The notes below the pieces were generated by a model, which was not told the origin of the DNA, did no database searches, and saw only the letters and a list, made by a program, of their open reading frames with translations. A stretch of 64,000 nt of DNA from a virus (Duplodnaviria > Heunggongvirae > Uroviricota > Caudoviricetes): the IMG/VR virus record IMGVR_UViG_3300002498_000057. One strand, written 5' to 3'. Every line of letters starts with the position of its first letter. Positions within the stretch are counted from its first letter, which is position 1. Positions 3,197-51,826 of this stretch are shown here, one piece after another. A program made the position numbers and the translations under genes.

Positions 3197-5752
3197 ATGA
3201 TAAAAATGTAGTAGTTTTCAAAATATATATGATAGACAAATTATAAAGGACCAAACGATAATACAATATAGGACACTTGAAGAAGAATTGCAAAAACAGC
3301 AGCGTCGTTATAGAAAAATAAATAGTATTGATAGGAATAGTTTTATAATATATTATATAATTTTTAGGTTGTTCCCGGCGGTAGGATAAATGCAAACATT
3401 GGTATATAGTAGCGAAAAAATGCTAGTTTGTTTAATTGTTATGTTTATAACCCTCAAGATTTTGGAATAAAAGATATTGATAGTATATAGACAATTTTTA
3501 ATACTTTAAAGCAATCAGCAAAGATATTGGCTAGTTAGGGCGGGTTGGGTATAAATTTAAGTTGAATACGGCCCAACGGTTCATTTATACATGGTACGGG
3601 GGTAAGAACACCCGGCGTATTAAAATTTATGTAGTTGTGAGATAAGACGAGCTAGATAATAACATTAGGTAGTAATAAAAAAATTAGTGATAAATATAAG
3701 CATATATAGAAAAAAAAGATACGTAAAGGCGCGCTTATGGGTATCTTAGATATATGTCATGCAGACATTAAATAGTTTATAGTTGTAAAACAGAATGCAA
3801 ATGTTCTAACGAAATTTAATTTATCCATTATGATTTCTGATAAATTTATGCATGCCGTATAGAGTAATTAGGATTGATAGTTAAAATTTCCAGATACATA
3901 GTTTTAGAAATATAAAGAGTAGTGAGACGGTAACTTTCAAAAGTGATAGGATAATGGATATCCATTTATAGTTTTTTAGGTAGTAAAAGCAAAATAGTTA
4001 TGAGATATGATAATGATGTCAACATATAATAGAAATTAGCCAGGTGTATTATTTCTTGATACAATAAATAGATTAAACCCGGTAAGTTATTGCGAATACA
4101 TATGTTGTACAAATCCCTGTTCATAGATTCCGCAACCAAGTAATATTTGTAATTTATCAAATGTTAATTTAGTTAAATTTTTTAGTAAATAGACCGGATA
4201 GTTTTAGTTTGAAAAATTTGGAAAATACGTCGCAGTAATTGTTAGATTTTTAGATAATATATTAGACATCTCAACTATTCCAATACAATAGTATAGATAG
4301 CTTATTGAGGATAAGCGACGAATTGGAATTGGTGTCTTAGGTTAGGGCTCTCTATTATATATGATGAAAATGAGATTTGGGTCAAAATAGGCAATATAGT
4401 TTATAGATAAGTTGTTTAAATATAAATCATAGATATAGCATTTGACCTCAGCAAACCTTGGAAAATAGAAGGGGTCATTTAAGGCATTTGATAAATAGAA
4501 ATATTTTAACACATAGTATTGAAAAAGTTTGTAGATTTCCTAGAATATTAAACGTGAGATATAGAATATCGGTTATATGAGAAATTCAGTACATTCAACT
4601 TCAGCTCCAACAGGTAATACTGGAATATATGCCGGTGTAGTTTCTGGAGGAATATAGCCAGTAATAGAAAAAAGCGGTATAAGATGAGTTGTTGTTAATC
4701 AATAGTAGAAATTTAACCTATAGAAATATATCTTTCCAGATCCTCATAGGGGATAGTGATTTGAAACAAATTAGTTAAAATTTATCAAATGCGGGAATGA
4801 ATAGATATTATAGGGATATGTTGAAGATATAAAATATCGTATTGATAAAAACCGAGGAATGACAAAATAGGTTGATGTATAGGATTATGGCTGGGCGTAT
4901 GTTAAAAAGCATTATGATGATGCTTATAATAATAATTATATTGTATAGGCAAAATAGCTATCTGTATAGTAGCATATAAATATGTTAAAAGCTTCTGCTA
5001 AATATATAAATCAAAATCAATCAAAAACTGTAAATTTACCGTCGAGTTATACATTCGAAGATTTTAAAAATGTTTTCTACGATGCTTGAAAGAGTAATAT
5101 AAAGGGTATTACTACTTACCGTGATGGAACGATGGCAGCTGTTATATAGAAAAAGAAGTAGCAATAGTAGTATAAAACATAGTTATAGAGATTATTTGTA
5201 TAGTCTAACGGTAATGTTATTAAAGACTATGTTAAATTACCAAAATAGTTTGATTCAAAAACATATGTAGTTAAAGATGTAAATAATAAGAAATGGTACA
5301 TTACTTTAGGGTTTGCAGACAAAGCTTGTAAAAAACCATTTGCTATGTTTATAAGAACTAATGCACACATCGCAACAGATATAGCTAATACTACAATATA
5401 GGCAATATAGGATTTACTTAGACGCAAAGGAATTTCATAGCATTTAATTATATAGCAGCAATAGAAATATTTAAAACAAAATAATCTTGATAAAATTGCG
5501 AGAGCCATTGGAATGGCAATGAGACATAATGTTAAGATGATGGATATTGTAAGTGTATTAGAATAGTATAATGATGGATTATCTACAATACTATTTCATA
5601 TACGTAAACTATTAACTAAATTTATACCAGATGGAACTGTTGTTAATATTAATAATAATAAAGTAAAATGCATAGAGTGTGGACAATAGACAATAGTATA
5701 TTAGTCCGGGTGTAAAAATTGTAAAAGTTGTGGATGAACTGCATGTGGATAA
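3197..5752 (+). CDS. nrdJ: class II (adenosylcobalamin-type) ribonucleotide reductase NrdJ (recoded)
   Basis: Single 852-codon frame. Motifs PGGRINANIG, GGLGINLS.IRPNG...GTGVRTPGVLKFM and active-site NPCSEIP. C-terminal KGITTYRDGT and a Cys4 ribbon CIECG...CKNCKSCGWTAC with W=TGA. More than 60 in-frame TAG. Confidence 0.8.
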
Positions 5753-6045: not shown

Positions 6046-6660
6046 ATGGCAAAGAAAAAAAATGATTTAAAATAGATAAAGCAAGTAATATTATAGCAAT
6101 AGTAGTAGAGTACTTAGTAGCAAAAAGTATAGTAGTAGAAAGATAAATAGAATAATCCAGATAAAGGGTGCTTACTATTATAGCTATAGATTAAACATTG
6201 GGATAAATTATTAAAGGTATTTGTTCCAACTAAAGAAGATATATATAATGATAATACAGATGATTTTGGATATTCATAGACTCCACATATTACAATATTA
6301 TATGGATTCTTAGATAGATAGAATATTGATAAATAGAAATTACAATAGTATTTAATACCAACTGATAATATTAAACCTAAAATCACTGGTATGTCTTTAT
6401 TTGAATTATAGAAATATGATGTATTAAAATTTGATGTAGAATGTAAATAGTTAGTCAATATGAATAAGCAAATAGCTAAAAATTTCAAATATTCTAATGA
6501 CTATAGTAAATATATACCCCATATTACAATAGCATATTTATTACCTGGAACTGGAAAGAAATATGTTAAAAATATTAAATTATTTTATCCAAAAGTAAAA
6601 TAGTATATTTATAATTATAAAAATGTTGATACATAGTTAATTCCATTAAAACTAAAATAA
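6046..6660 (+). CDS. 2H phosphoesterase, LigT-like (2',3'-cyclic phosphodiesterase / 2'-5' RNA ligase family) with acidic N-terminal tail
   Basis: Two H-x-T-x motifs (TPHITILYG and IPHITIAYL) in one frame; N-terminal run of TAG (Glu) codons; TAA stop. Confidence 0.65.
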
Positions 6661-7071: not shown

Positions 7072-8979
<1,908 letters not shown>

Positions 8980-10397: not shown

Positions 10398-11468
10398 ATG
10401 GAAAGGTCATATTATTAGATACTGGGTGTTGATAAAACAGCTAATGTAGATTAGGTTAAAAAAGCTTATCGTAAACTAGCAATGTAGCACCATCCTGATA
10501 AGAACAATAATAATAAATAGTCATAGGATAAATTTAAATAGTTAAGTGAAGCATATGAAGTATTATCAGATCAACAAAAACGGCAACAATATGATATGTT
10601 TGGAAAAGGTGGAGTTAATACATCAAATATAAATGACATGTTTGGTCATGGATTTGGTTTTGAGTCTATATTTGATTCTATATTTAACCATAGAAATCCA
10701 TTTAATAGGCAACAACATCAACAACAACGAGTTGAAAAAAGTTAGGATCTTGTAATAGAAGTGTAGATAAATTTAACTGATACAGTATAGAATATTTAGA
10801 TTATTAAATAGATATAGTATAAAGTTAAGTGTAAAAAATGCAATGGAACAAAGTCATAGGATGGTAAAACTCATAATTGTACTACCTGTAATGGAACTGG
10901 TATAATTACAAGAGTTACTAATATGGGTTCAATGGTAATGCAACAGCAAATGACTTGTAATAGTTGCAATGGAGTTGGAAATGTTATATAGACCTTGTGC
11001 AGTAGTTGTAATGGAACTGGATTTTAGTTATAGAAAAAAAATATTAATATAACTATTCCAAGGGGTATAGAGTCTAATGTAAAACTTCAACTTAAAGACA
11101 TTGGAAATATTAATAAAGATAGGCCTGGTGATATAATTGTTATAATAAATGTAATTAATAACACAATATTTACTAGAGATAATAATAATTTAATATATAT
11201 TTACCCTATACAATATTATGATTTAATTCTTGGAACTAAGTTTATTTTAAAAACTATATATGATAAATAGCTTTAGATAACTATACCATCAGGGATTAAA
11301 GAGTCAATAAGTATACCTAATTAGGGCATATATAGTATATTTGTAAACAATAGTAATACTAGGGGTATATTACAAATAAATTTATAGTGTAAAATACCAT
11401 CAAAATAGTAGATTGAACAAAATTAGATTACATTATTATAGAACATAAAGGAGATCCGAAATGGATAA
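10398..11468 (+). CDS. dnaJ: co-chaperone DnaJ (J domain + Gly/Phe region + CxxCxGxG zinc-finger repeats), recoded
   Basis: SYY.ILGV..., [14 protein letters not shown] and [20 protein letters not shown]; four CxxCxG repeats ([31 protein letters not shown]); TAG at conserved Glu of DYYEILGV. Confidence 0.8.
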
Positions 11469-11937
11469 AAAGGTAATAGTATGTTCACAATGTCATAAAA
11501 CACAGAGAATGGTATAGACTACTATAAAATAGTTTAAATGTTGTAAATGTTTAGATTAGAAAGATCCATTTATACAATAGTATTTTAATAAAATTGCTTA
11601 GAACAAGGATAAGCCTATAGGTACTTTAGTTAAAAAGCCGAGAGGCTGGAAGTTTATGAAAATATTTGTTGATAGTTAGGGCAATGTATATTTTCGCGGA
11701 GTATTACAGCCATAGTTAAAAAACACTTTACCAATAACAATAATAGAAAAAAAATAGAAAAAACAAAAAATATCAAACAGACAAAAATCAGAAAATTAGA
11801 TTTAGATGTTTGCAAAAATAAATAGCTTAAAGAATTAGATTATAGCATGTTATCAAGACAAAGATAAAAAGAAAGCTCATAGATTATAGAAAGAATTAAA
11901 TTAGTATAAACATAGGTTTAAAAAAGTTTTAAAGTAA
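11461..11937 (+). CDS. hypothetical protein with N-terminal zinc ribbon (recoded)
   Basis: AAGGAG SD, ATG overlapping dnaJ stop; CSQCHK...CCKC; many TAG; TAA stop. Confidence 0.35.
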
Positions 11938-11947
11938 AGGTATTAAA

Positions 11948-12457
11948 ATGAGTAAATAGATAATATACAGCGGTAACTGGTTAAAGCTAATAAATATAGA
12001 TTTTAATAATAAACAGTATTAGTATGTATAGAGAATAGATAATACAAAAGCTGTAGTTATTATAGCAATAAAATAGTCTCATATATATGGAAGAAAATAT
12101 CAATTAATACTACAAGATAGACCAACCTTCGATACCTATATATTATAGTTTCCAGCTGGACTAATTGATAAAATGTAGACAATAGAATGTGCAGCATTAA
12201 GATAGCTTAAATAGGAAACTGGATACAGTGGAGTTGTAAAAAAAGTTAGTAATGCTTCTCCAAGCTCAGCTGGATTATCTACAGAATTATTATACTTTGT
12301 AACAATATAGATTACTGAACAAGATAAAGTATAGTTAAATGATTAGAATAATAATATAGTTATCTTACCGCTAATGACAAAATCTGAAATAATAGATTAT
12401 ATTGGTAATACAAATTATTTAATATCAAGTAGAGTATATTGTTATTTTATGAATTAA
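11948..12457 (+). CDS. Nudix hydrolase (recoded; catalytic Glu codons are TAG)
   Basis: FPAGLIDKM[TAG]TIECAALR[TAG]LK[TAG]ETGY fits the Nudix box G-x5-E-x7-REUxEExGU only if TAG=Glu. Confidence 0.7.
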
Positions 12458-12514
12458 ACAAAATTTTTAAATAAAATATTTATACTGATATTTATATATA
12501 AGGAGAGTTTTACT

Positions 12515-13180: not shown

Positions 13181-14046
13181 ATGGATAATTTAAACGGTAT
13201 AAGTATATATTAGTGCAAATATTGTGGAAAGTAGTGAAATACTTCAACTCAAAGAAATGGTCATCAAACTATGTGTAAAGCTAATCCAAAGTATGAATAG
13301 ATACACAATAAAATAAATGAAAAAAATAGTAATAGGATATGGCCAAATCAACAAATAACAAAAACATTCTTATGTAAAAAATGTAATAAATAGTATAGTG
13401 TAACAGCTACATAGTATGTATTTAATAAAGGTACTTATAAAAAACATTGTTCTATGGCTTGTTCAAATGCACATGTATGAACATAGTCGGGAAAATATAA
13501 ACTTAGTATTATTTGTAAAAATAGTGAAAAAGTATTAGCATTTAATAAGTCTAGACCTATAAAACCATATGTTCTTATTTGTGCTGTATGTAATAAATAG
13601 TACAGAGCTAGTACAGAGCTAGTAATGATAAGAATCCATATTGTTCAGTAAAATGTAAAAATATAGTAATACCTAGAAAAGTTGGGTCAGGTGGAAATAG
13701 ACCCGGGGCTGGTAGAGGTAAAGCGGGTTGATATAATGGAATTCAATGTGATAGTAGTTGATAGTTAGCGTATGTAATATATTGTTTATAGCATGATATA
13801 AAAGTATCACGGTGTAAATAGACCAGATATTATTAGTTTGAAGGTAAAGAATATAAATATTTTCCAGATTTTGTAGTAAATAATATAGTGATATAGATTA
13901 AAGGTTGATTAACTAAAAAAGATCAAGCTAAAATATAGAATAATAAAGATGTAGTTGTATTGCAAGAATGTGATTTAAAATAGCAATTTGACTACGTGAT
14001 ATCAAAGTACGGAATAGATTTTATAAAATTATATTAGAAAAAATAA
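13181..14046 (+). pseudogene. zinc-finger + PD-(D/E)xK endonuclease, split by a -1 frameshift caused by an 11-bp tandem duplication
   Basis: N-terminal CxxC fingers end at TAA 13647. The C-terminal part (CDSSWELAY...YFPDFVV..IEIKGW) is in a different frame from 13597. Direct repeat TAGTACAGAGC x2 at 13602-13623. Intact paralog at 35495-36310. Confidence 0.55.
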
Positions 14047-14059
14047 TAAATCTTTATAT

Positions 14060-14131
14060 GGGTGACTCATCCAATGGTTAGGATCCTGGATTTCAACCCC
14101 AGTCATATGCGTTCGAGTCGTATGTCACCTG
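14060..14131 (+). tRNA. tRNA-Trp(UCA), opal-decoding
   Basis: Acceptor GGGTGAC/GTCACCT, anticodon loop TTTCAAC (UCA), T-loop TTCGAGT, discriminator G, CCA encoded. Confidence 0.85.
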
Positions 14132-14618
14132 CCATATTTTTTTAAATTAAAATAATAGAGGGTATTTAATGGAGCACAGATAGCATATTGTATTTGATGA
14201 TATGTATAATAATTATAAAATAATTCAATATGCATATTATTAGCCAACGAATATTAATAGATATGGTTTACATTACTTAGATATATAGAAAACAATAATT
14301 ATTAATAATTATACTAAGTTTGTATTTAAGATCCATTTAAATAATATATCTTTTACAAAATACAATAAAGATAAATTTATGTTATCTATAGTAAAAGTTG
14401 TTGATATTTTTGCAAATCATACTATAGAATTTCCAAGTATACTTATAAAAATATAGAATCCAAAAGAAGTTTAGAAGTATGTTGAATTTGATTGTAAAAA
14501 TCTTAAAATTGATAAATTAAAAGGTTTATTTGATAATATAGATATAGTGATTAATAAGTTTTTATAGCTATATAAATAGCCGTATATACTAAGTTAAAAA
14601 TGATAAAGAGGGGGTGTT

Positions 14619-15270: not shown

Positions 15271-15627
15271 TATATTATAATTAAAAACAATATAATCTTC
15301 TTTAACTATTTATATTATATTACTACTTACTAAATTTATTACCAGTACTTGAAAATATTTTTGCTTTTTCATTTTTACTCCATATATATTATTATAAACA
15401 TATTAAAAGGAATAAATCATTATGAAATATTACAAAATTTCTTAGGTCATGCAATTAACTAATTTATCTTATTATCATCTTAAAAAATGAGCTGACTAGG
15501 GACTAATATAGTAGAGTCGGCTACCCTCGGGGTATAGAGTCTATTCTTAGTAGCAGATTCAAAAAATATTTTAGTTTATAGGTGACAATAATAAAAACAT
15601 TAAGCATTGGACATTAACTAAGTAATT

Positions 15628-16986
15628 TTGAATACTATAAAACTTCCTTATATTATTGATACAAAAGAAGATATAGATTATATCATATGTCTTAGAAAGC
15701 AACAATCTAATGTCATTAGATTTTCTTATAATAGATTTAAAGATAAATTATCTTAGAAATAGATAAGATTGTTAATTAAAGATTTAAATAATATAAATAA
15801 CTTAGATAGTTGGTTTATACAATCTGCTATTAAGAAAGCATAGTATCTATATAAATCTAATCCAGATAAGAAAGTAATCTTCGGTGGTAAATCTAATTAT
15901 CTCAAGAGATTACAAAGTAAAATTACAAAAGAATAGTATAAGTAGAAAAGAATTTAGCCATTGTATGTTGTGGGATAGTCTCCAAAGAATGGTAATAGAA
16001 AGTTTAACTTAGATATTGACAATAACTGTCTAGTATTTAAACCGTATGTAAGAAGAAAAATTAAATTACAATTACCAAAATTACATAAAAATATTAAAAA
16101 ACAATTATTGTTTTTACAACAACAAGCAAAAGATAAACTTCTTGCTTATCAAATAGCTATTGATGCTGAGTTTATTTACATTTCTTTTGAATATGAAAAA
16201 CATACTATTGAATTAAATAAGAGTATTTACATGGGAATCGATTTGAATCCCCAATTTATTGGGTATTCAATAATCAAGGGTAGTAAAGTAATATATTCTA
16301 AAACTTATGATATTGGATAGATAATTACTAGAGTAAAATAGACTAAAGAATAGTCTTCATCCAAAACTAATAAATATTTAAATAATAAATTTAACCATGA
16401 AACTATTTAGATTTCTAAAGACATAATAAACAATTGTTTAAAATACAAAGTATCTAATATATTTATGTAGTCCTTAGATTTTACTAAATCATTTAAGTTT
16501 AAATACAAAGGTTTAAATAGATTGTGTCAAAACCTTTGAAAAAGAAATAAGTTTACAAGCAATATTCAAAAAAGATGCAATTCCTATGGCGTCAAGTTAT
16601 CATTTATCAATGGTGCATATAGCTCTACTATAGGAAATATAAAGTATAATTTATTCGATCCATGCAATTCAGCTATTTAGATAGCAAGACGTGGATACGA
16701 GTGTTATACTAAAAGACAAAAGAAATTTTATCCAAATTTAGTAGTTAAAAAAGAATTTAAAGATCAATGGAAGAAATATTTAAATTCTAAGACTATTGAG
16801 TTAGATAGCGTTTCAAATGAAGATTTATTTAAAAATACCTGGAAAGATCTTCATAATTACCTAAAAAATTCTAAAGTGAAATATAGAGTTTCTTTAAGTG
16901 AGTGTGACTTATTTAAAGTTTTTAGATTAAAGAATAAAAGAAGTATGGTAAAATTATATAGTTTTACTTAGTCTTTTATACTTTAA
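15628..16986 (+). CDS. tnpB: IS200/IS605-family TnpB (RuvC-like, zinc finger), recoded; probable TTG start
   Basis: RuvC-I MGIDLN, RuvC-II IFMESLD and RuvC-III FDPCNSAIEIARRGY; TGA inside NLWKRNK; many TAG; left-end hairpin at 15500-15540. Confidence 0.7.
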
Positions 16987-17099
16987 GTATTTTAGAACAA
17001 CTTCTGAAGAAAAAGCTATTAAAATAGCAAATGATAAACGAGTCCAAATAATATCAAATAATAATTGGGTAAATGGATACGAAGAAAATATCCAGTCTT

Positions 17100-17325: not shown

Positions 17326-17397
17326 GGAGTTATCGTTTAATGGCTAGGACCGCAGATTCTAAACCTGCAGATCGGGGTTCGATCCCCCGTAACTCTA
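17326..17397 (+). tRNA. amber-decoding tRNA(CUA) with Glu/Gln-type body (probable tRNA-Glu(CUA))
   Basis: Acceptor GGAGTTA/TAACTCT, D-stem GTTT/GGAC (U11-A24, U13-G22), anticodon loop TTCTAAA (CUA), 4-nt variable loop AGAT with A46, T-loop TTCGATC, CCA encoded. Confidence 0.85.
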
Positions 17398-17605
17398 CCA
17401 GATTCATAACCTATTTTTATGTGGGTTGGGTAGCTAAGGAGTATTAAAGAGGTAATATTACTTTAATAAAAACCACTTAAGGGATAATTAATATTTTTAG
17501 TGTAGCAGGTCAATTTCTAAAAATATTGAGTTATTCAAAATCTCCTAAATGAATCTTTTATTTACCTCAGGTATCACAATGGTTAGTGAGTCTGAGCTTA
17601 TTTAT

Positions 17606-18127: not shown

Positions 18128-18484
18128 GGGGATGAAATGGATTCGACATAGTGAATAGGATAGAGAAACGAGTAGAGAATGATTGTGATACTCTCAAAAC
18201 TCAATTAAAGTTAAAATAGTTAACGACAACTTACTACAAGCTGCTTAATTGCAGACTATCATAACTGAGGTTCTCTGATTTGTAGATTATGATAGTAAGA
18301 CCATAATCAGACTTATCCAATAAGATAGTCTTAGTAATTGGATATAGTATACAAGGCATTACATAATTTAGGTTTGCACAATTGTCCTTCTTATGTGATT
18401 ATTAAACAATTATGCTATACTCGTAAGTGATTTCTTGAAAGTAAGCATTATGGACCCGAGTATCGAAACTCGGCATCTCCACCA
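18128..18484 (+). ncRNA. ssrA: tmRNA (SsrA)
   Basis: 5' GGGGATGAAATGGATTCGAC and tRNA-like 3' end GGACCCGAG-TATCGAAA-CTCGG-CATCTCC-A-CCA; internal tag frame (V)NDNLLQAA-TAA. Confidence 0.8.
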
Positions 18485-19081: not shown

Positions 19082-19104
19082 CCATACTTTGTATGTTTTA
19101 AACA

Positions 19105-19197
19105 CTATAATTAATCTTTGGTGGAGAGTTGATCACTCTTAGATATTTCGTTAATATCATGGAAATGTAGTAGTTCGAATCTACATTATAGTATTTA
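19105..19197 (+). repeat. ~93-nt repeat family R2, copy a (tRNA-like/structured RNA candidate)
   Basis: About 93% identical to 23628-23722; hairpins AGAGT-TGATC-ACTCT and ATGTAG-TAGTTCGAAT-CTACAT (T-arm-like). Confidence 0.35.
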
Positions 19198-19205
19198 AGT
19201 TTTAT

Positions 19206-19279
19206 ATTCCTATAGCTCAGTTGAATAGAGCAAATGCCTTCTAAGCATTAGGTCGTTGGTTTGAGTCCAACTAGGAATG
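19206..19279 (+). tRNA. tRNA-Arg(UCU)
   Basis: Acceptor ATTCCTA/TAGGAAT, D-arm GCTC-AGTTGAATA-GAGC, anticodon loop CTTCTAA, CCA encoded. Confidence 0.85.
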
Positions 19280-20962: not shown

Positions 20963-22330
20963 ATGTCGAAAGTTAATGTAAAGGTTGCTTATCCAAATCC
21001 TAAAACACATGGAGATGGTATTGCGTCAAAACTTACTAAGTTAGAAGAACTTCGTAGAAGTGTATTATCTAATATGCTTTGGGAAAATGAATTTTATGAA
21101 GACGGCGAAAGTATTGCAACTAGAATAACCAATTTAGCGAATACTGTTGATCCTAACAAGGTAGCTGATTTGGCTATTGAAGCAAGAGAACAAATGAAGT
21201 TAAGACATGTACCATTATTGTTATGTCGTATTCTTGCAAAAAGAGGTTATAAGGTAGCAAATACTTTAGCTAGAGTTATTCAAAGACCAGATGAACTTAC
21301 TGAATTTTTAGCTATTTATTGGAAAAATGGCAAAGAACCTTTATCAGCTCAAGTTAAGAAAGGACTAGCGTTAGCATTTACAAAATTTGATGAATATCAA
21401 TTAGCTAAATATAATAGAGATGAAAATATTAAATTAAAAGATGTATTATTTTTATCCCATGCAAAACCCCTTACTGATGACCAAGCAAATGTCTGGAAAA
21501 GATTAATTGATGGTACCATAGAAACTCCAGACACCTGGGAAGTAGCATTATCAACTGGTAAGGATAAGAAAGAAACTTTTGAAAGACTTATTACTTCAAA
21601 AAAATTAGGCGCATTAGCGTTAATACGTAACTTAAGAAAGATGGAAGAATCAAAAGTTGACAATAATATTATAAAACAAGCATTACTAGATATGAAAGTT
21701 GATAGAGTATTACCATTTAGATTCATTGCGGCAGCAAAACATGCTCCAAGATTTGAGCAGGATCTTGAACAAGCAATGTTTAAGTGTCTTAGTAATGGTA
21801 CTAAGTTACCTGGTAAAACTATTTTAATAATAGATATTTCTGGTAGTATGCATGGTCAATTATCATCTAAATCTGAAATGAGTAGATATGATGCTGCTAA
21901 TTCATTAGCTATTCTAGTAAGGGAAATGTGTGAAAATCCCGTAATATATGCTACAGCTGGAAATGACGGTAGAAGAATTCATGCAACAGCTTTAGTTCCA
22001 AACAGACGTGGATTTGCATTGCCAGACGCTATTATGAACATGAATAGTACTCTTGGTGGTGGTGGAATATTCTTAAAGCAAGTAATGGATTATGTATATG
22101 ATAAAGAGCATGATGCAGATAGAATTATAATTATTACAGATGAACAAGATTGTGATAATAGTAACGTAAATGCACCTGCAAATGCTAATGCCTTTGGGAA
22201 ACAAAATTATATTATAAATATTGCTTCATATAATAGAGGTATAGCATATAATAAAAAATGGATCCATATTAGTGGATGGTCAGAAGCGGTATTAAATTAT
22301 ATAGCACAATATGAGTTAATGGGTAATTAA
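20963..22330 (+). CDS. rsr: Ro60 ortholog (TROVE domain + C-terminal vWA/MIDAS), Rsr-like
   Basis: N-terminal LTKLEELRRSVLSNMLWENEFYEDG (TROVE); C-terminal ILIIDISGSMHG MIDAS motif; SD AAGGAG; no TAG/TGA. Confidence 0.8.
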   Translation: MSKVNVKVAYPNPKTHGDGIASKLTKLEELRRSVLSNMLWENEFYEDGESIATRITNLANTVDPNKVADLAIEAREQMKLRHVPLLLCRILAKRGYKVANTLARVIQRPDELTEFLAIYWKNGKEPLSAQVKKGLALAFTKFDEYQLAKYNRDENIKLKDVLFLSHAKPLTDDQANVWKRLIDGTIETPDTWEVALSTGKDKKETFERLITSKKLGALALIRNLRKMEESKVDNNIIKQALLDMKVDRVLPFRFIAAAKHAPRFEQDLEQAMFKCLSNGTKLPGKTILIIDISGSMHGQLSSKSEMSRYDAANSLAILVREMCENPVIYATAGNDGRRIHATALVPNRRGFALPDAIMNMNSTLGGGGIFLKQVMDYVYDKEHDADRIIIITDEQDCDNSNVNAPANANAFGKQNYIINIASYNRGIAYNKKWIHISGWSEAVLNYIAQYELMGN

Positions 22331-23435: not shown

Positions 23436-23511
23436 GCCCAGATATGCAAGCAGGAAAAGCAGATACACTTAGGATGTATTGATTTTGCAGGTTCGACTCC
23501 TGTTCTGGGTA
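23436..23511 (+). tRNA. class-I tRNA with Leu-type anticodon UAG
   Basis: Acceptor GCCCAGA/TCTGGGT, anticodon stem ATACA/TGTAT, loop CTTAGGA, short variable region, T-arm GCAGG-TTCGACT-CCTGT, discriminator A, CCA encoded. Confidence 0.7.
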
Positions 23512-23543
23512 CCATTATTTAAGATACGGATAATAGTTATAAT

Positions 23544-23616: not shown

Positions 23617-23627
23617 ATGTTTTTAAA

Positions 23628-23722
23628 ATATTATAGTTGATCTTTGGTGGAGAGTTGATCACTCTTAGATATTTCGTTAATATCGTGGAAATGTAGTAGT
23701 TTGAATCTATACTATAGTATTT
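23628..23722 (+). repeat. repeat family R2, copy b
   Basis: Paralog of 19105-19197. Confidence 0.35.
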
Positions 23723-23739
23723 TAAATTTTATAATAAGT

Positions 23740-25191: not shown

Positions 25192-25277
25192 GTACCTGTG
25201 ACAGAATGGTTAATGTGGCAGTCTGCAAAACTGTTGAGGTGAAAGCTTCATTGTAGGTTCAAATCCTATCAGGTACT
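25192..25277 (+). tRNA. class-II (long variable arm) tRNA carrying Cys anticodon GCA
   Basis: Acceptor GTACCTG/CAGGTAC, anticodon stem GCAGT/ACTGT, loop CTGCAAA, variable arm TGAGG-TGAAAG-CTTCA, T-arm GTAGG-TTCAAAT-CCTAT, discriminator U, CCA encoded. Confidence 0.6.
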
Positions 25278-25283
25278 CCAAAT

Positions 25284-25919: not shown

Positions 25920-25993
25920 AAGGGTGTCGGTTAATGGTTGACCAACAGTCTCCAAAACTGTATTTAATGCAGGTTCGACTCCTGTTCTGGGTA
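25920..25993 (+). tRNA. tRNA-Trp(CCA)-like, probable pseudogene/chimera (acceptor stem cannot pair)
   Basis: D-arm GGTT-AATGGTT-GACC, anticodon stem ACAGT/ACTGT, loop CTCCAAA. 3' 30 nt GCAGGTTCGACTCCTGTTCTGGGTACCA identical to the 3' end of the 23436 tRNA, but the 5' strand AAGGGTG is not complementary. Confidence 0.45.
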
Positions 25994-26035
25994 CCATTAT
26001 TTAAAATATGCAAAATTGTGCATAATAGCTATAGA

Positions 26036-27802: not shown

Positions 27803-28405
27803 ATGAAAGCAAAAGAAGTATTACAAATATTAAGAATTACAAGACCGACATTAACAAAATATGTTAGATAGGGTTGAATTAAAGTTTAGTAGTTGCCAAG
27901 TAAAAGATACATATATAATGATGAATCTGTTTATAAATTAATGAATAACAATATAGATAGAAAAACTGTAATATACGGAAGAGTTTCAACTAAATCACAG
28001 AAAAAAGATTTATAGAATCAAATGTAGTTATTAAAGCAATATTGCTTTAATAATGGATACCAGATAAATGCGGTATATTCTGATATTGCATCTGGTATTG
28101 ACTTTTCAAATAGAGTATAGTTTTTTAATTTATTAGATTAGATTATTAGTGGTAAGATAAAAAAAGTTATAATTACATATAAAGATAGGTTAAGTAGAAT
28201 TGGATTTTCATTTTTTGAAAAATTTTTTAAAAAATATGATTGTAAGATATAGGTAATTTCTTAGTTAAATAATCATAAATTATAGAGTTAGTAGATATTT
28301 GAATAGATAATAAGTTTAATTCATTGTTTTTCAATGAAAATATATAGTAAAAGAAAATCTAATAATACTATTATAATAAGTACTAATAGTTAGGATATAA
28401 AATAA
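27803..28405 (+). CDS. tnpA: IS607-type serine recombinase TnpA (recoded)
   Basis: N-terminal MerR-like HTH MKAKEVLQILRITRPTLTKYVR; catalytic YGRVSTKSQKKDL; VIITYKDRLSRIGFSFFEKF; SD AAGGAG. Confidence 0.75.
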
Positions 28406-28459
28406 CTCTTGATTAAAACATAGATTATTCAATGTAAATTTAATTTTTAGATAGATAAT

Positions 28460-29623
28460 ATGTTATTTATATCTAAGAATTTATACAATTATGCTAATTA
28501 TATAATTAGGCAGTAGTTTATAAATAATAGAAAATGAATAAGATATAATTAGTTATACCGTCTAGTTAAATAGAACTAGAATTATAAAATATTACCAGCT
28601 CAGACTAGCCAACAAGTTTTAAAGTTATTAGATAAAAATTGAAAATCATTTTTTACTGCTATTAAATTATGAAGTAAAAATAAATCAAGCTTTACTGGTA
28701 AACCAAGTCTACCAAAATATAAGAAAAAAGATGGAAAAAATATTTTAATATATCCTTTTCAAAATATTTCTATAGACAAAGAAACAAATTAGATTAAAAT
28801 ACCAAAAACAAAGTATAAAATTAAAATATCTAATAGGTTGTTATCTTAGACTATTAAATTTAAATAGTTAAGAATAATACCAACAAATGTTGGATTTAAA
28901 TGTTAGATAATATATAATGATAATCAAGATTTTCAAAAACAAGAAGATAATAATAGATATTGTAGTATAGATTTAGGATTAAGTAACTTTTCTACATTAG
29001 TAAATAATTTCGGAACATTACCACCAATAATTATAAATGGAAAAACAATTAAATCCTTTAATCGATATTATAATAAAAAGTTATCTAAATTACAGTCTAA
29101 ACTTTCATAGGAAAATAAATTTGTGTCAAAAAGAACACAGAGGTTAACTCAAAAAAGAGGTAATAAAATTAAAGATTCACTTCATAAAATTTCAAAATAC
29201 ATTCAAAATTATTGTGTAGATTTAGATGTATCAAGAGTAATAATGGGATACAATAAACAATGAAAAACAGATATTAATCTTGGTAAAAAGATAAATCAAA
29301 AATTTGTACAAGTTCCATATAATACTTTTTTAAATATGTTAAAGTATAAATTATATGATATTGGAATAATTTTAGAAATTACAGAAGAATCTTATACAAG
29401 TAAATGTTCTTTCTTAGATAAAGAAAAAATATGTAAACATACGTAGTATCAAGGAAGTAGAATTAAACGCGGTATATTTAAAACAAAATAGAACAAATAT
29501 ATAAATGCTGATGTTAATGGTAGTTATAACATCATAAGAAAAGTAATCGGTGATGATATTTATAATAATATCCAATCGATATAGGGATTGGTGTTAAACC
29601 CAGTTAGACTAAATATAGTTTAA
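28460..29623 (+). CDS. tnpB: IS607-type TnpB (recoded)
   Basis: LPAQTSQQVLKLLDKNWKSFF (W=TGA), SIDLGLSNFSTL (RuvC-I), IMGYNKQWKTDINLGKKINQKFVQVPY (W=TGA), EESYTSKCSF, INADVNGSYNIIRK. Confidence 0.75.
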
Positions 29624-35494: not shown

Positions 35495-36310
35495 ATGTAT
35501 AAATGTAAAAAATGTAATTAGTAGTTTAATTCTATACCCGGCCTATCAAATCATGTAAGATGGCATCATAAAGAGATTATAATATATTAGTGCTAGTTGT
35601 GTAATAGAAAGTTTATAGGTAGTGCTGCATTTATTATTCATAAGAGAGTCTGCGAGAGTCGGACTGTAAAAAATAAATATCCGTAGTTTTGTGATTTATG
35701 TGGTCATAAAATTTCACAAGCTGTATATGCGAGACACCATAAATATTGTAATGGCCTTGGTCCAAGAAGATTAAGATAGAAAAAAAATTTATATGCACCC
35801 CATGGAAAAACATACATATAGATTTTTGGAGCATAGAAAGCTAAATAGATAATTAATAAAATATCTAAAACAGCAAAAAGTCATTATATAGCTGGAGTGT
35901 CGGGACATGCAAAAACTGAATAGAAATAGGCTATTAGATGTAAAAAAATAAGCGATTATATTCTTAATAGGTATTAGACGGGATGAATGCCCAAGGCCGG
36001 TAGATGTAAAAAAATAGATTATGAAAGTAATATTGCTGGTAATGTTAAGCTTGATGGAAGCTGGTAGTTAGCAGTTGCTAAATATTTTGATAAAAATAAT
36101 ATAAATTGGAGAAGAAATACAAAAAGGTTTAAGTATTATCATAATAATAAAACTAAACATTATACTCCAGATTTTTATCTGGTCGATACAGACTAGTATA
36201 TAGAAGTAAAGGGATATATTACTTAGTTGGATAAAATAAAATGATAGCAATTTATGTAGAAACTTTTAATTTGGGATAAATTAGTTTTAAAAAATTTAAA
36301 AATTATTTAA
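35495..36310 (+). CDS. C2H2 zinc-finger + PD-(D/E)xK endonuclease (recoded), intact paralog of the 13181 pseudogene
   Basis: CKKCN..H..WHH and CELCNRKF...HKRVC fingers; C-terminal LDGSWELAVAKYF...YTPDFYLVDTD.YIEVKGY. Confidence 0.6.
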
Positions 36311-36425: not shown

Positions 36426-37040
36426 ATGGCAGACACATATCTAATTCAAAAACTAAGAAAGTAGACTGGTTATCCACTTGGGCAGTGTAAATAGGCATTA
36501 GAATATACTAATTATGTTTATGATACCGCTATAGAGTATTTAAAGTCTTTAACCTTAAATAAGAAATATGGACAACCAATACCAATAACTGAAACTTCTA
36601 CTGCTAATGGTATAATTTATTCATATATACACCACAATGAGAAAATTGGTGTTATGTTATAGATGAGATGTGACTCTGATTTTACCGCTAAAACAGAATA
36701 GTTTAAACAGTTATGTGAAGACATTGCATTACATATTGTCGTGACTAATCCAAAATATTTTAAACCAAGTTAGTATATAACTATACATGGTGAATAGCTA
36801 GATAAAGAACATGAGATTCTTTATCAAAAATTAAAGTTACAAAATAAACCAGAAAATATAATTCATACAATTATCAATAACATGCAATAGAAAAAAGTAA
36901 ATGATTTATGTTTAATGACACAAAAGTTCTTTAAAGATTAGAAAGTAACAATATCTGATATTTGTAGAGATTTGTCAAATAAGACAAATGAAAACATTTA
37001 TGTAGAAAAGTTTATAAGGTTTTAGTTGGGTAAATAGTAA
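36426..37040 (+). CDS. tsf: elongation factor Ts-like protein (recoded)
   Basis: N-terminal LIQKLRK.TGYPLGQCK.ALE (EF-Ts UBA-like motif [20 protein letters not shown]); IGVML.MRCDSDFTAK aligns to ILEVNCQTDFVAK; LHIVVTNPKYFKP aligns to MHVAASKPEFI. Confidence 0.5.
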
Positions 37041-39652: not shown

Positions 39653-39837
39653 CATGCCAAAAAATAAAAGTGATATTAAAAAGAGTTTAGATGATTTACA
39701 AACAATTATTAAACTTGAAAAAGATATAGATAGAAAAAATTTAATAATCAATAAAATAATTACATTTTGTGATACTAATATTGATAATGATATTTGTGTT
39801 AAAATTTTAAATATTATCAAATCCTAAGATATATATA

Positions 39838-40125
39838 CTAAAAGACAAAAGAAATTTTATCCAAATTTAGTAGTTAAAAAAGAATTTAAAGATCAATGGA
39901 AGAAATATTTAAATTCTAAGACTACTAAGTTAGATAATGTTTCAAATGAAGACACTTTCAAAAATACTTGAAGAGATCTTCATAATTACCTAAAAAATTC
40001 TAAAGTGAAATATAGAGTTTCTTTAAGTGAATGTAATTTATTTAAAGTTTTTAGATTAAAGAATAAAAGAAGTATGGTAAATTTATATTGCTTTACCTAG
40101 TCTTTTATACTTTAAGTATTTTATA
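39838..40125 (+). mobile_element. orphan copy of the 3' end of the IS605-family tnpB (omega-RNA/right-end scaffold region)
   Basis: About 93% identical to 16705-16990 (last ~95 codons of tnpB plus right-end sequence); no upstream tnpB body. Confidence 0.6.
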
Positions 40126-40142
40126 AAGAGGTATTAAAAGAT

Positions 40143-40391
40143 ATGGGTAGACCCAAGGGTGCTCCAAACAAGCAAAAACAAAGTAAACAGACAAAATTAA
40201 CCTATAATACAATATCAGTATAGTTATTATTATAGTCTGTTAACTTAACTAAATAGATATTAGTAGTAGTTAGATAGATATTATAGTATTTATAGAGAAC
40301 TAATATTACTTAGTATAATAGATTAGTATAGAAATTACAACCTAGCTTAACTAAATTAAAAGAATTTAATAAGGTGATAACCAATGTATAA
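40143..40391 (+). CDS. hypothetical small basic protein (recoded)
   Basis: MGRPKGAPNKQKQSKQ; TAG-containing frame to TAA at 40389. Confidence 0.3.
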
Positions 40392-41691
40392 TAATTATAT
40401 TTATCAATTATAGAATGAAACGAATCAATAGTACAAATTTAGATTATTGAATGGAAAATAGATTGGATAGTATTAGATAACTTGACCATAGATTAAATAG
40501 TTATTAAAAGATCCAAGAGATGTTAGAGCAATAAAACGTGATTGAGATGGATATAAATTTGTAGTATAGTATTAGTTATAGAATAATAATAATGATAGTA
40601 TAAATAAATAGTTAGTAACTTTATCAAGACAAAAACAGAGATTTGCTGATGTAAATAGAATTTAGCGCCAAAAAGTTAGATAGATGAGTAGAGTTATAAA
40701 TACTATATAGTAGTATAGTAATTCTTTAAAATAGGTATTTGCACACTATGATATGACTTAGTTTATTGGTAATAATGATAGTCATATATTTACATAGAAT
40801 AATGTTGGAATTATACACTTAACTGACTTACATTTTAATGAAATAGTTACATAGGTTTTAGATAACTAGTATAATTTTAAAATTGCCGCAAAAAGATTAT
40901 CTAAATTTATTAGTAAGAGTAAATAGTATTTTAAATTAAATAATGTTGATACAGTATTGATTGCAATGACTGGTGATTTAATAAACTCAGATCGACGATT
41001 AGAATAGTTATTATCTCAATCTACAAATAGAAGTAAGGCTACTTTCTTAGCTGTAAATATCATAAATAATATTATAATTTAGTTATCTTATTAGTTTAAT
41101 AGTATTTATATCTCATGTGTATCTGGTAATTAGAGTAGATTAAGTAAGGAAGTTGGATGGACATAGATGATGGCTTCTGATAATTATGACTTTACTATAT
41201 TTAATATTTTAAAATATTTATATAGAAATAGTAAAAATATAATATTTACTGCTGGTGATTATTATTAGCATATTGTCACTATTGGTTCTAATAGAGATGA
41301 TATTAATATTTTATTATTACATGGAAACGTAAATAAATTAGCTGGTAATGTATAGTATGGTGTTCAGCAAATAATGGGTAAATATAGTTCTAGAAATATT
41401 CATATACACTTTATGTTATTTGGTCATTATCATTCATGTAGAATAGGAGATAATTTTGCAAGAGGTGGATCACTATCAGGAGCAAATGGGTATAGTGATA
41501 AGTGTTTGCAAATGACAACTAGAGCTAGTCAAAATATTCATATTATAAATAGATAGAATGGGTAGGTTGATTCAATTAAGATTGATTTGCAAAATACTGA
41601 TGGATATTAGGGATATTTAATTGATTAGACATTATATAATGAATTACTGCACACTAGTGAATGGAATAAATAGCATAAGATAATAATTTAA
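40384..41691 (+). CDS. calcineurin-like metallophosphoesterase (recoded)
   Basis: Motifs IIHLTDLHFN, MTGDLINSD, LLLHGNVN and FGHYHSCRIGDNFARGG in one frame with many TAG; contains the ORF-track fragment 41374-41556. Confidence 0.6.
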
Positions 41692-42855: not shown

Positions 42856-43881
42856 ATGAAAATATTATACAAGATTAAAGCTGGTTCATATTTATATGGA
42901 CTAACCACACCTACCTCAGATATAGATTATGTTGGGGTATACTTAGAAGATACATTTAGTGAACATATGGATATTTTTAATTCTAAAGATGAAATTGATC
43001 TTTCAGTAATATCTAAATTAAATAATGGTAAAAATAGTGAAGATGCAATAGATGAAAAATACTATAGTCTTAAAAAATTTTTAAAGTTGTGTAGTGATTG
43101 TAACCCAAATATTATAGAGCTCTTATATGCGCCGGCCGATTGTATTGAATATGTAGATACTATATTTAAATCTCAAATTCTTGACCATCCAGAATTATTT
43201 ATAAATATAAAATTAGTTGATAGATTTATTGGATATGCAAAAAGTCAAGAGCAAAAAAGTTATACTAAGTCTGAAAACTATATAATACTAGATAAATTAA
43301 AACAGGGTATATTAAAAGTATTAAAGCATTCTAGTTATTGGGTTTTAAATGAATTGTCCCCCGCTAGAGATTTATTTAGCCGACAATCATTTATGGCACC
43401 GTTTCCAGAATTTGATAACATTACTATTACTCCAATTACAATTAATCATACTGCTACTAATATTGAGACAATATATGAAATAGGTGATATGAAATTTTCA
43501 TCTGGATTACATCTTAAAAATGTTATTTTACAAATTGAAGATAGGTTTAAACGAGCTTCACATAGAGTAGATGGAATATTAATTAATAAATACGAACCAA
43601 AGTTTTTATCACATACAGTACGGTTGTTAGATGAAGGCTGTCAATTATTAACTAAAAAACGTATAGATTTTCCATTTACTGAACAATCACTAGCAGACAT
43701 TATGAATATTAAATTGGGGTTAACGGCAGTTCAAGATATTCCAAATATTGTCAATAAATATAAAGATACTTTAACAGAATTAGAGAAACTTGATAACAAT
43801 ATTCCAGACAAACCAGATTATATTTGTATAAATAAAGCATATTTAACTTTAATAAGAGGTATTTACAATGAAAATATTTAA
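42856..43881 (+). CDS. Pol-beta superfamily nucleotidyltransferase
   Basis: GSYLYGLTTPTSDIDYVGVY matches G[SG]-x9-13-DxD of minimal NTases and CD-NTases; 341 aa. Confidence 0.55.
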   Translation: MKILYKIKAGSYLYGLTTPTSDIDYVGVYLEDTFSEHMDIFNSKDEIDLSVISKLNNGKNSEDAIDEKYYSLKKFLKLCSDCNPNIIELLYAPADCIEYVDTIFKSQILDHPELFINIKLVDRFIGYAKSQEQKSYTKSENYIILDKLKQGILKVLKHSSYWVLNELSPARDLFSRQSFMAPFPEFDNITITPITINHTATNIETIYEIGDMKFSSGLHLKNVILQIEDRFKRASHRVDGILINKYEPKFLSHTVRLLDEGCQLLTKKRIDFPFTEQSLADIMNIKLGLTAVQDIPNIVNKYKDTLTELEKLDNNIPDKPDYICINKAYLTLIRGIYNENI

Positions 43882-44129
43882 GATGGTTGGTAAAATAATA
43901 TTGATTGTATGGCTAATTATAACAGCAATTTGTCTTATACCGGGTGCAATTTGTTTTGGTATTTTGATTTTACTTGAATCTATATTTAAGGTAAATACGA
44001 AAATAATGAAACATCGTAACGTCAGTTAAATAATTGTAATAAACCATAAATAGACAAGTATAATTTAAGTAAAGGAGATATAAAATGAAGTTTATTAAAT
44101 ACAATGAAATTGAAAACTCTACAAACAAA

Positions 44130-45134
44130 ATGATTTATGAATTTAAACAATCAACATTGTATAATCCAACTGATATTTGAGTTGTAACCATCAAAATTCA
44201 TGGAAGCAATTTCCAAATTATAAGAGCCGACGATGGACAATTGGTGCCAGCTAAAAGAACTAATACTCTGGAAATGACATCTTCTTTCTTTAACTTTCAA
44301 TCAATATTTGATAGATATGATTATAACAAATTAATGAATAATATCTTAGAATTTGCAAAAATACACTATCCAGATTTTTTGGGTGGAATAAGTATTCATG
44401 GAGAGCTTTGTGGTGGTCATTATCCTGGAGCAGAAGTAGTACCAAATGCAAAAAAGGTTCAAAAAGAAGTAGCATACTCAAATAATACAGAATTAATAGT
44501 ATTTGATATACGACTAACCTCGACTGATAATGATGATTACTATATATTTATTCCGCATTATCAAATAATTAAGCTTTGCAACGATTGTAATATCCCAGTA
44601 GTTCCTATTATATTTGAAGGTACTTTAGATGAATGTTTAAAGTGGTCTAGCGAACATAATGCTGACCCCTGTGAAATATGGAAAATATTTGGTATGGATC
44701 ATGAAGTAGAAAATAACATTCGTGAGGGTCATGTTATTAAACCGGCTATTAAGACAATATTTAAGGGCCAACATCGTATGATATTTAAAGATAAGAATGA
44801 TAAATTTAAAGAAAATAAAGGTAGCAAAGAAAAAAATGCAGTACCAAAAATTACTTACAGCGATAATATGATTTATATCTTAGACAATATTGATACTATG
44901 ATTTGCATTAATAGGTTTAATTCTGTTACTTCAAAATTTGGTGAATATAGTATTAAAGATTTTAGACTATTAATGTTATTTATGATTGAAGATATTTATG
45001 ATGAACTTAATAGATCTATAGATTTAAAAGAATTATTTGATACTTTAACTAATGTTGAAAAGAAAGAATTGAATGATATTTTGAATAAAAAGATTGCTAG
45101 TTTTATGGGCGCAAATAAAAAAGAATTATTTTAA
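44130..45134 (+). CDS. Rnl2-family RNA ligase (start uncertain; one in-frame TGA=Trp at 44178)
   Basis: DIWVVTIKIHGSNFQ aligns to T4 Rnl2 GEWVAREKIHGTNFS (motif I KxHG, W from TGA); motif IV EGHVIKP; motif V KIFKDKNDKF. Confidence 0.7.
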
Positions 45135-51548: not shown

Positions 51549-51640
51549 CTAACAATGATAAAGAGTTCTTTTAGCAACAGTTATATTTTAATTGTTATTT
51601 AATGGTTATAACATAAAGGAAGGTTACAAGGAAGTAAATA

Positions 51641-51826
51641 ATGAAACTAATAGACTACGATAAATTTATACTTGATGATGGCAAAATAAGGAATTGCCAA
51701 AACAATATTAATAAAATGACGTATATAGAGTTTTTAATATTTAATCTACCAAAAATAAATAAACAATGGTTTATTGACTATTTTTATGAACCAGTAAAAG
51801 AATCTATGAGGATTGGTGTAATATGA
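51641..51826 (+). CDS. hypothetical small protein (module copy 1, gene a)
   Basis: Paralog of 52737 (MKLIDYDKFILDDGKIRNCQNNINKMTY). Confidence 0.4.
   Translation: MKLIDYDKFILDDGKIRNCQNNINKMTYIEFLIFNLPKINKQWFIDYFYEPVKESMRIGVI

Follow-up and report, generated by a model that had tools for sequence, protein, structure and literature searches.

Phages that have given up one of the stop codons are well documented. In the code 15 phages, among them Lak megaphages and crAss-like phages, TAG is read as glutamine (PMC8346664, PMC9523058, PMC11210395), and in the TGA-recoded Jade and crAss-like phages studied by Borges et al. (bioRxiv 10.1101/2021.08.26.457843) a phage-encoded tRNA(UCA) serves to read TGA as tryptophan in a subset of genes. 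Phage suppressor tRNAs and single stop reassignments (TAG to Gln, TGA to Trp) are thus established, and both surveys and annotation tools take account of table 15 or table 4 only, one at a time. Here, we describe an opal-decoding, Trp-type tRNA(UCA) gene at positions 14060–14134 (+ strand) of a 64,000-nt stretch of phage DNA (IMG/VR record IMGVR_UViG_3300002498_000057), referred to below as the window. The window has an exact counterpart in a 256,585-bp ENA contig (ERZ27315036, k141_100919; contig positions 153075–217074, reversed), and gene content was read over about 74 kb of these 256.6 kb. A phage tRNA(UCA) serving TGA as Trp is a known kind of feature. What this locus adds is the reassignment of two stops at once in the same genes, with TAA as sole terminator, and the use of TAG for glutamate with a dedicated synthetase. 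We consider it highly probable that about half of the genes of this phage are written in a code in which TAA is the sole stop, TAG specifies glutamate and TGA tryptophan, the two codons being decoded by tRNA(UCA) and an amber-decoding tRNA(CUA).

Compared to the phages of Borges et al., the locus shows both shared and distinct traits. As in those phages, a tRNA(UCA) accompanies the use of TGA for Trp in a gene subset, the other genes are compatible with the standard code, and the genes that bring about the code change are themselves written in standard code. Unlike in those phages, the recoding of TGA goes hand in hand with that of TAG in the same genes, the roughly 74 kb read showed no tryptophanyl-tRNA synthetase (TrpRS) or release factor 1 (RF1) module, and the recoded genes encode replication proteins and chaperones rather than mainly lysis and structural proteins. 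In the literature searched, we found no phage with both stops reassigned, with TAG read as Glu or with a recoding-linked glutamyl-tRNA synthetase (GluRS), although a prior description elsewhere is possible.

The tRNA(UCA) gene was called by ARAGORN as a 75-nt tRNA with anticodon TCA, and the Rfam model RF00005 matches 14060–14131 over its full length (positions 1–71) with 43 bits, well above the gathering score of 29 (E 8e-6 for the whole window). The element thus belongs to this family as a full-length cloverleaf with one non-canonical pair, and its minimum-free-energy fold is a cloverleaf as well. Parsing of the arms yielded a 7-bp acceptor stem with a G1·U72 pair, a 4-bp D stem, the anticodon loop UUUCAAC, a variable region of 4 nt and the T loop TTCGAGT. 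The 3′ end reads GTCACCT-G-CCA, with G73 as discriminator and the CCA encoded at 14132–14134. The sole non-canonical pair, A31·C39, which the covariance-model alignment marks as well, lies beside the anticodon loop, within 14086–14102. A preliminary description of the locus, made from the sequence alone, had recognised a canonical tRNA with anticodon UCA, discriminator G and this T loop, all of which agrees with the ARAGORN call, the Rfam match and the fold. It had also placed the 5′ end correctly; the 3′ end given there, 14131, is the discriminator, and the CCA extends the gene to 14134.

The tRNA(UCA) gene starts 14 nt past the TAA (14044–14046) of a zinc-finger/PD-(D/E)xK-like endonuclease gene (13181–14046, + strand), which is split over two overlapping frames (13181–13651 and 13597–14046) and holds TGA and TAG. 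The preliminary description had located the tRNA directly behind a frameshifted endonuclease gene, and an intact 271-aa paralogue at 35495–36310 makes the term frameshifted reasonable. Its statement that the tRNA is encoded alone is true locally; the window as a whole holds 27 other tRNA genes, among them that of tRNA(CUA), and a transfer-messenger RNA (tmRNA). All 28 tRNA genes called by ARAGORN are encoded on the + strand, within 6.9–36.4 kb. Next to tRNA(UCA), Rfam detected neither a ribozyme nor a member of any other family. Around the gene, 21 promoter-like sites were counted vs 11.7 expected, and no terminator, in a scan that is uninformative in DNA this rich in AT.

The meaning of TGA is read most directly from the alpha chain of ribonucleotide reductase (RNR; 3197–5752, + strand), a gene of 851 codons with 14 TGA, 74 TAG, 2 TGG and a TAA stop. 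We translated this open reading frame (ORF) with X at TGA and TAG and aligned the product to 89 full-length homologues (40–53% identical). All but one of the 14 TGA codons fell in Trp-majority columns, four of which hold an invariant W in 89/89 homologues. Pooled over the TGA columns, W amounted to 83%, which compares with 82.6% at the two TGG codons of the same gene. Glu, Cys, Gly and Arg each stayed at or below 1%, Cys occurring in 2/89 sequences and in one column only, so that the TGA sites carry no Cys/Sec or Gly signal. A second test was provided by the T4 gp41-like replicative helicase (159–1550, + strand; 9 TGA, 31 TAG), which was recognised by Pfam and by alignment to PDB 8dtp and was compared with 59 homologues. 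Four of its nine TGA codons lie in W-majority columns and one more in an aromatic column. W is the top residue of the pooled TGA columns (31.5%), the conserved W columns reaching 51/59 and 54/59, and T4 gp41 itself has W opposite two of the TGA codons. Finally, the Rnl2-like RNA ligase (44085–45134, + strand) is free of TAG and has one TGA, at codon 32, which aligns with the W of the motif GEWVAREKIHG in T4 Rnl2. The TnpB gene described below adds no test of TGA, having no sequence match in the PDB. Judged by these columns, TGA means tryptophan in this phage, and the Trp assignment of the preliminary description is upheld by the RNR and helicase columns and by the T4 gp41 and T4 Rnl2 alignments, in-frame TGA being present in well-aligned genes. 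Translation table 4 nevertheless does not describe the code: TGA = Trp fits, but the window holds 501 in-frame TAG codons, at Glu positions.

The same RNR alignment defines the meaning of TAG. Here, 40 of the 74 TAG codons lie in Glu-majority columns; of the 20 TAG columns with 70% conservation or more, Glu occupies 15 and Gln not a single one, and the pooled TAG columns contain 38% E and 6% Q. In DnaK (7072–8979, + strand), which has 23 in-frame TAG and no TGA, TAG stands at conserved Glu positions (LGIET, VLQGER, AKIELS), and alignment with mortalin places E at 10 of 15 TAG sites. Moreover, alignment with T4 gp41 indicates that the catalytic Glu of the helicase motif SMEM is encoded by TAG. 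By the evidence of these alignments TAG is glutamate, not glutamine, and translation table 15 does not apply, TAG being Glu rather than Gln and TGA being a sense codon as well. TAA acts as a stop, because TAA-delimited genes match the lengths of their homologues: with TAA as a plain stop, RNR has 851 aa vs 845–865 in its closest full-length homologues. In all probability, TAA is the only stop in the code of about half the genes. The resulting assignments resemble those of the nonstop nuclear code of Blastocrithidia (UGA = Trp, UAR = Glu; PMC12153298). Both UGA and UAG have the meaning set out in translation table 31, in which UAA is read as Glu too and terminates only in certain contexts, but TAA is a pure stop in the phage, the UGA decoder is a cognate UCA rather than a near-cognate CCA tRNA, and the system is viral and concerns only part of the genes. 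The preliminary description was incomplete in this respect, since it left out the TAG-to-Glu recoding, of which the TGA recoding is the minor partner.

Surveying the whole window with TAA as sole stop gave 104 ORFs that hold 501 TAG, 76 TGA, 150 TGG and 757 GAA/GAG codons, with up to 74 TAG and 14 TGA in a single ORF. Under code 11, ORFs of at least 100 codons covered a fraction of 0.33 of the window; this fraction increased to 0.41 when TGA was read as a sense codon, to 0.645 when TAG was, and to 0.79 when both were, the + strand by itself accounting for 0.74. Measured against the model of Borges et al., the rise in coverage from 0.33 to 0.79 together with the matching tRNA(UCA) and tRNA(CUA) is as expected, as is the presence of standard-compatible genes beside recoded ones. 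That model has one reassigned stop (TAG to Gln or TGA to Trp); here there are two, and TAG is Glu.

The two reassigned codons are not distributed evenly over the genes. In-frame TGA occurs in 30 of the 104 ORFs, well beyond the minimum of eight genes given in the preliminary description, and 22 of these 30 are TAG-rich. TAG is present in 54 ORFs, and 45 contain neither TAG nor TGA. The 41 genes with three or more TAG codons use 64 TGA vs 43 TGG, and the 50 genes without TAG use 9 TGA vs 85 TGG, so that TGA use is linked to TAG use at the level of single genes (odds ratio 14, p = 3e-14). In the recoded genes TAG is the commonest Glu codon (483 vs 241 GAA+GAG); compared to the other genes, Glu drops from 6.0% to 2.4% and Trp from 1.07% to 0.35%, and TAG makes up 6.6% and TGA 0.8% of the codons. 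TAG is spread evenly along the genes, and the base after in-frame TGA or TAG shows no clear bias against strong termination contexts. The recoded class includes the helicase, RNR, DnaK, DnaJ, elongation factor Ts (EF-Ts), a NUDIX protein, an Acb1-like protein, two TnpB genes and a resolvase; a further TAG-rich gene lies at 40384–41691. The TAG-free class includes TROVE/Ro60, RtcB, RNA ligases, RlaP, a sirtuin, an SPFH protein and an Apyc1-like lactamase. The TROVE/Ro60-like gene (20963–22330, + strand), with 6 TGG and neither TGA nor TAG, can be read entirely in the standard code.

Several of the nine TGA codons in TAG-free genes are found in 5′ extensions of doubtful validity. The 5′-terminal TGA codons of TAG-free ORFs (51766, 52865, 56601 and 55324) probably precede the true start or belong to the wrong frame and were not used as evidence. 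In two ORFs the apparent 5′-end TGA is due to a direct repeat of 175 nt (51636–51810 and 52735–52909, 90% identical).

The amber-decoding partner, tRNA(CUA), is encoded at 17326–17400 (+ strand; ARAGORN, Rfam, fold and arm parsing). It has U11-A24, U13-G22, A46, a 4-nt variable loop and A73. The first four of these features are what we take to be the marks of the augmented D-helix of tRNA-Glu, as known from the identity set of E. coli tRNAGlu. tRNA(CUA) and tRNA(UCA) share the D loop, C9, the 4-nt variable loop and A31·C39, and only these two stop-decoding tRNAs, out of 28, have a mismatch, A31·C39, at the loop-proximal pair of the anticodon stem (14086–14102 and 17352–17368). The tRNA(CUA) of another GluRS-bearing phage (L040, 12521–12595) has different stems and the same A31·C39. 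Loci reached through the TROVE protein belong to diverse unrelated phages; none has a UCA tRNA, and one, a GC-rich phage, has a CUA tRNA in which 31:39 is paired, as a normal A31-U39. In Blastocrithidia and some bacteria, shortened anticodon stems promote the reading of stop codons by tRNATrp(CCA) (PMC13092985). The stop-decoding tRNAs described here resemble these 4-bp-stem tRNAs in having four paired anticodon-stem positions; the opened pair is the loop-proximal 31:39 and not, as there, the distal 27:43. The A31·C39 common to both tRNAs may be a shared adaptation for beating release factors, or it may play a part in recognition by the synthetase. G1·U72 was considered as another shared mark of the suppressors and was dropped, at least two other tRNAs of the window carrying it.

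The synthetase that would serve tRNA(CUA) is encoded just past the window end, at a position equivalent to 64238–65584 (11114–12460 of the locus L026). This GluRS of 448 aa contains neither TAG nor TGA and passes the NCBIfam bacterial equivalog model TIGR00464 with 348 bits (cut-off 290), covering only model positions 2–372 of 470. The usual anticodon-binding domain, Pfam PF19269, was not detected in the protein. The short GluRS subfamily to which it belongs comprises about 30 protein clusters; alignments with cellular GluRS proteins, in which PF19269 is present, extend over only about 70% of the phage query. Members of the subfamily are located on TAG-recoded contigs of 184–262 kb, and on two of them (L040 and L041) GluRS lies about 1.1 kb from tRNA(CUA), with a tmRNA further downstream.

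Besides tRNA(UCA), a Trp(CCA)-like element is present at 25920–25996 (+ strand), which the preliminary description had rightly judged to be a broken chimera. Rfam covers only model positions 10–63 of it (25929–25985, 33 bits). Its 5′ part has its own D arm and a CCA anticodon arm, and its 3′ part is copied from another tRNA: 25968–26008 is identical at 40 of 41 positions to 23486–23526, the 3′ part and trailer of the tRNA at 23436–23514 (+ strand), whose T arm, 3′ acceptor strand and trailer are thereby duplicated. Owing to this copied 3′ part, the acceptor strands do not pair and the acceptor stem cannot form. Neither ARAGORN nor Rfam found an intact tRNATrp(CCA) in the window, and a pattern built from the D and anticodon arms of the pseudo-tRNA had no match in GTDB genomes.

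This setting bears on which amino acid tRNA(UCA) carries. The identity set of bacterial TrpRS consists of G73, the major element, with C35 and A36, and tRNA(UCA) carries all three. Like the tRNATrp(UCA) of Mollicutes and other code-4 bacteria, it is a type-I tRNA with UCA and G73 that would read UGA (and UGG) as Trp; unlike that tRNA, it is encoded by a virus whose relatives stop with TGA, and it has G1·U72, C38 and A31·C39. The label SeC given by ARAGORN derives from the anticodon alone, as does its label Pyl, and both labels were rejected. The likeness to tRNA-Sec extends to the UCA anticodon and G73 only; at 75 nt, with 7/5 stems and a 4-nt variable region, tRNA(UCA) has no long variable arm and no 8/5 or 9/4 acceptor/T geometry, and its TGA columns are Trp, not Cys/Sec. 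A tRNA-Cys identity was discarded because of G73 in place of U73, and the Sec- or Cys-like folding that the preliminary description had named as contrary evidence was not found.

Several observations nonetheless weigh against the overall reading of the locus proposed here. The tRNATrp of E. coli and B. subtilis has A1-U72 as first pair and a regular 5-bp anticodon stem, and tRNA(UCA) departs from this textbook form by G1·U72, C38 and the A31·C39 mismatch. Its Rfam score is the lowest among the full-length tRNAs of the window, and its nearest neighbour there is the Glu-type tRNA(CUA), though at only 68% identity. We infer its Trp identity from codon-to-column statistics and from identity elements known for other tRNAs. 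No orthologue was found in any other assembly searched, so that the gene is known from one metagenomic contig: a loop-anchored pattern had no match in JGI metagenomes, IMG/VR or GTDB genomes (185,579 species genomes), and an exact 27-mer had none in JGI metagenomes. The lone IMG/VR match to the exact anticodon-arm pattern (L004) is a chance hit in GC-rich coding DNA without a tRNA. One TGA of the helicase aligns with a conserved Lys column. TGA also occurs at 42528, 52369 and 53195, 1–22 codons before the TAA of ORFs that are compatible with the standard code in all other respects; these could be real stops of early genes, with the nearby TAA as a backup under suppression. Moreover, the roughly 74 kb read revealed no TrpRS, RF1/RF2 or release-factor inhibitor, so that the earlier statement that the phage brings its own machinery for TGA = Trp is so far accurate for the tRNA and not for a synthetase or release factor.

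One may accordingly ask whether tRNA(UCA) is charged with Glu by the phage GluRS, or with Cys, Sec, Gly or Arg, or is inactive, TGA being read in another way, for example by a variant tRNATrp(CCA) of the host or the phage. The D loop, C9, 4-nt variable loop and A31·C39 shared with tRNA(CUA), its nearest neighbour, would suit such a reading, as would the low Rfam score, and near-cognate UGA reading by a tRNATrp(CCA) with a 4-bp stem is documented in bacteria (PMC13092985). Against this stand the TGA columns, with 83% W and at most 1% each of E, C, G and R, the G73 that sets tRNA(UCA) apart from its Glu-type partner with A73, and an architecture unlike that of tRNA-Sec. Furthermore, the window's only gene with a CCA anticodon is the dead chimera, and a cognate UCA tRNA is the simplest decoder. 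We therefore judge a non-Trp role of tRNA(UCA) to be quite improbable and retain it as the probable Trp decoder.

The relatives of the phage place the TGA recoding in context. No close match to deposited phages was found (megablast of window positions 1–25000 against 50,697 phage records), and the cultured phages with the most similar helicases are Microcystis phage Mel-JY01, at 41% identity, and Flavobacterium phage immuto, at 37%. Contigs with the most similar RNRs share with the window a synteny of helicase, RNR, ClpP, ThyA, dUTPase, PolB, gp32 and UvsX. In four of these relatives (L001, L028, L030 and L031), the RNR gene contains 30–59 in-frame TAG, no in-frame TGA and 16–19 TGG, and ends with TGA; 10–11 of the 14 RNR TGA sites of the window align with TGG in the TAG-only relatives. 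L032, a closer relative at 72% nucleotide identity, contains 71 TAG, and its RNR carries TGG at 4 of 5 window TGA sites, a count restricted to the C-terminal part as the rest aligns unreliably. Two further IMG/VR relatives (L033 and L034) use the standard code. The TAG codons of the relatives also stand in conserved Glu columns, where the public translations show Q. These observations point to a likely series of codes leading from the standard code via TAG = Glu to TAG = Glu plus TGA = Trp, of which the last step is so far found in this phage alone. Since the closest relatives recode TAG only, stop with TGA and use TGG at these sites, the assignment of TGA to Trp is very probably a recent second layer over an older, clade-wide TAG recoding.

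The relatives also inform on the host. If the host itself used code 4, with TGA as Trp and without release factor 2 (RF2), the phage would merely mirror it and tRNA(UCA) would be one more supply tRNA besides 26 others, an idea that suits the GC content of 27.6%, AT-rich as in known code-4 lineages, and the near-complete set of tRNAs. The closest relatives, however, stop the same RNR gene with TGA and write all its Trp codons as TGG. In addition, at 27.6% GC TGA should dominate everywhere in such a host, yet the 50 TAG-free genes show the 85 TGG vs 9 TGA given above, and TGA use tracks TAG use by gene. A code-4 host is therefore unlikely, in keeping with the view of the preliminary description that the host need not be one: the relatives use TGA as RNR stop, and about half of the phage genes avoid TGA and TAG. 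As the closest relatives terminate genes with TGA and carry TGG at the TGA sites of the window, the host probably uses the standard code.

A more radical objection is that the in-frame TGA and TAG codons are artefacts, arising from pseudogenes, from assembly or sequencing errors or from a contig that is not of phage origin, and that the tRNA is incidental. The tRNA region does come from a single metagenomic assembly, but fragments of the same phage, 99.97% identical, were assembled from an independent JGI sample and cover other parts of the window. Moreover, the 577 in-frame TAG and TGA codons lie at Glu and Trp positions of conserved proteins, and the use of TAG is common to the relatives. 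A phage origin is marked by the T4-type gp41, Rnl1/Rnl2, Acb1-like and Apyc1-like genes and by the packing of genes on one strand. The artefact explanation is thus already contradicted and hardly credible. The window very likely stems from a jumbo phage of 256.6 kb whose replication genes are T4-like.

Together, these data allow us to outline how the system might operate. tRNA(UCA) would be transcribed from the phage genome and is most likely charged by the host TrpRS via G73 and C35-A36. The charged tRNA would insert Trp at UGA in competition with the host RF2, and wobble of U34 could let it read UGG too. tRNA(CUA) would do the same for TAG as Glu, probably after charging by the phage GluRS. 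Genes without TAG and TGA, such as those for RNA repair, anti-defence and GluRS, should be translatable on arrival in a standard-code host, and the tRNA genes would need transcription only. In contrast, the recoded genes, including those of the helicase, RNR, DnaK/DnaJ and EF-Ts, would be translatable only once the suppressor tRNAs are present, because TAG is so dense and TGG has been converted to TGA. Termination would proceed via TAA, which is recognised by both host release factors. Such a dependence on phage tRNAs fits a timing or firewall role, in analogy to the model of Borges et al., although the recoding here extends beyond late genes to those for replication and chaperones. As to its origin, a natural one-stop-codon virus that arose in two steps is a reasonably probable scenario: first, a clade-wide change of TAG to Glu, with a tRNA(CUA) derived from tRNA-Glu and a GluRS with replaced anticodon-binding domain, and then a lineage-specific conversion of most TGG codons to TGA, read by the phage tRNATrp(UCA), with decay of the tRNATrp(CCA) gene of the phage.

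With both recodings taken into account, the phage resembles code 15 phages in being large and AT-rich, in encoding tRNA(CUA), and in having many in-frame TAG codons and a low apparent coding density under table 11. It differs from them in that TAG is Glu, in this phage and its relatives, and in the dedicated GluRS subfamily that accompanies the tRNA. Pipelines set to table 15 put Gln at up to 9% of residues, which spoils annotation, structure prediction and phylogeny for this jumbo-phage clade. The only one-stop-codon organism in the literature searched is the engineered E. coli strain Ochre (PMC11903333), in which, as here, TAA is the sole terminator and TAG and TGA are freed for sense. Unlike Ochre, the phage system is natural and viral, uses canonical amino acids and, given the probable standard-code host, would have to work against intact RF1 and RF2. 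The relatives, forming a series from standard code via TAG only to TAG and TGA, make the order and cost of successive code changes testable, and the tRNA/GluRS pair and tRNA(UCA) are candidate natural orthogonal parts for genetic code expansion.

Other genes of the window are also connected to translation. A tmRNA at 18128–18484 (+ strand) was found by Rfam (RF00023, 94.7 bits) and not called by ARAGORN; its likely tag frame ends with VNDNLLQAA followed by TAA. An EF-Ts homologue is encoded at 36426–37040 (+ strand; Pfam PF00889, 2e-27) and is recoded, with 10 TAG codons. The RNA-repair set, located at 20963–22330, 42856–45134, 49795–51018 and 60821–61891, comprises the TROVE/Ro60-like protein, an RlaP nucleotidyltransferase, the Rnl2-like ligase, RtcB and a T4 Rnl1-like ligase. 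All these genes are TAG-free, in line with a possible early expression by which the tRNA pool would be protected. Two candidate anti-defence genes were noted: a 2H phosphoesterase with weak similarity to Acb1 (anti-CBASS) at 6046–6660, which has 21 TAG codons, and a protein with a metallo-beta-lactamase fold at 55324–56181, annotated as Anti-Pycsar Apyc1 in the source contig.

Mobile elements are present as well. A serine resolvase gene (27803–28405; 1 TGA, 14 TAG) lies upstream of a TnpB gene (28460–29623, + strand; OrfB_IS605 and Cas12f1-like TNB domain; 4 TGA, 12 TAG). The two form an IS607-like pair (27803–29623), and a second TnpB-like ORF is located at 15622–16986; TAG and TGA are used as sense codons in these genes. 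At the 3′ end of this second ORF, a segment of 293 nt (16705–16997) has a 93% identical copy 23 kb away (39834–40126) and may be a transposon end or an omega-RNA region. Within the tRNA array, direct repeats of 117 nt (90% identical) lie at 19093–19206 and 23617–23733. An 89-nt tRNA at 25192–25280 (+ strand) combines the anticodon GCA and U73 with a long variable arm, an unusual trait in a tRNA-Cys; the anticodon arms of this tRNA (GCAGT CTGCAAA ACTGT) and of the dead Trp(CCA)-like element at 25920 differ at just two positions.

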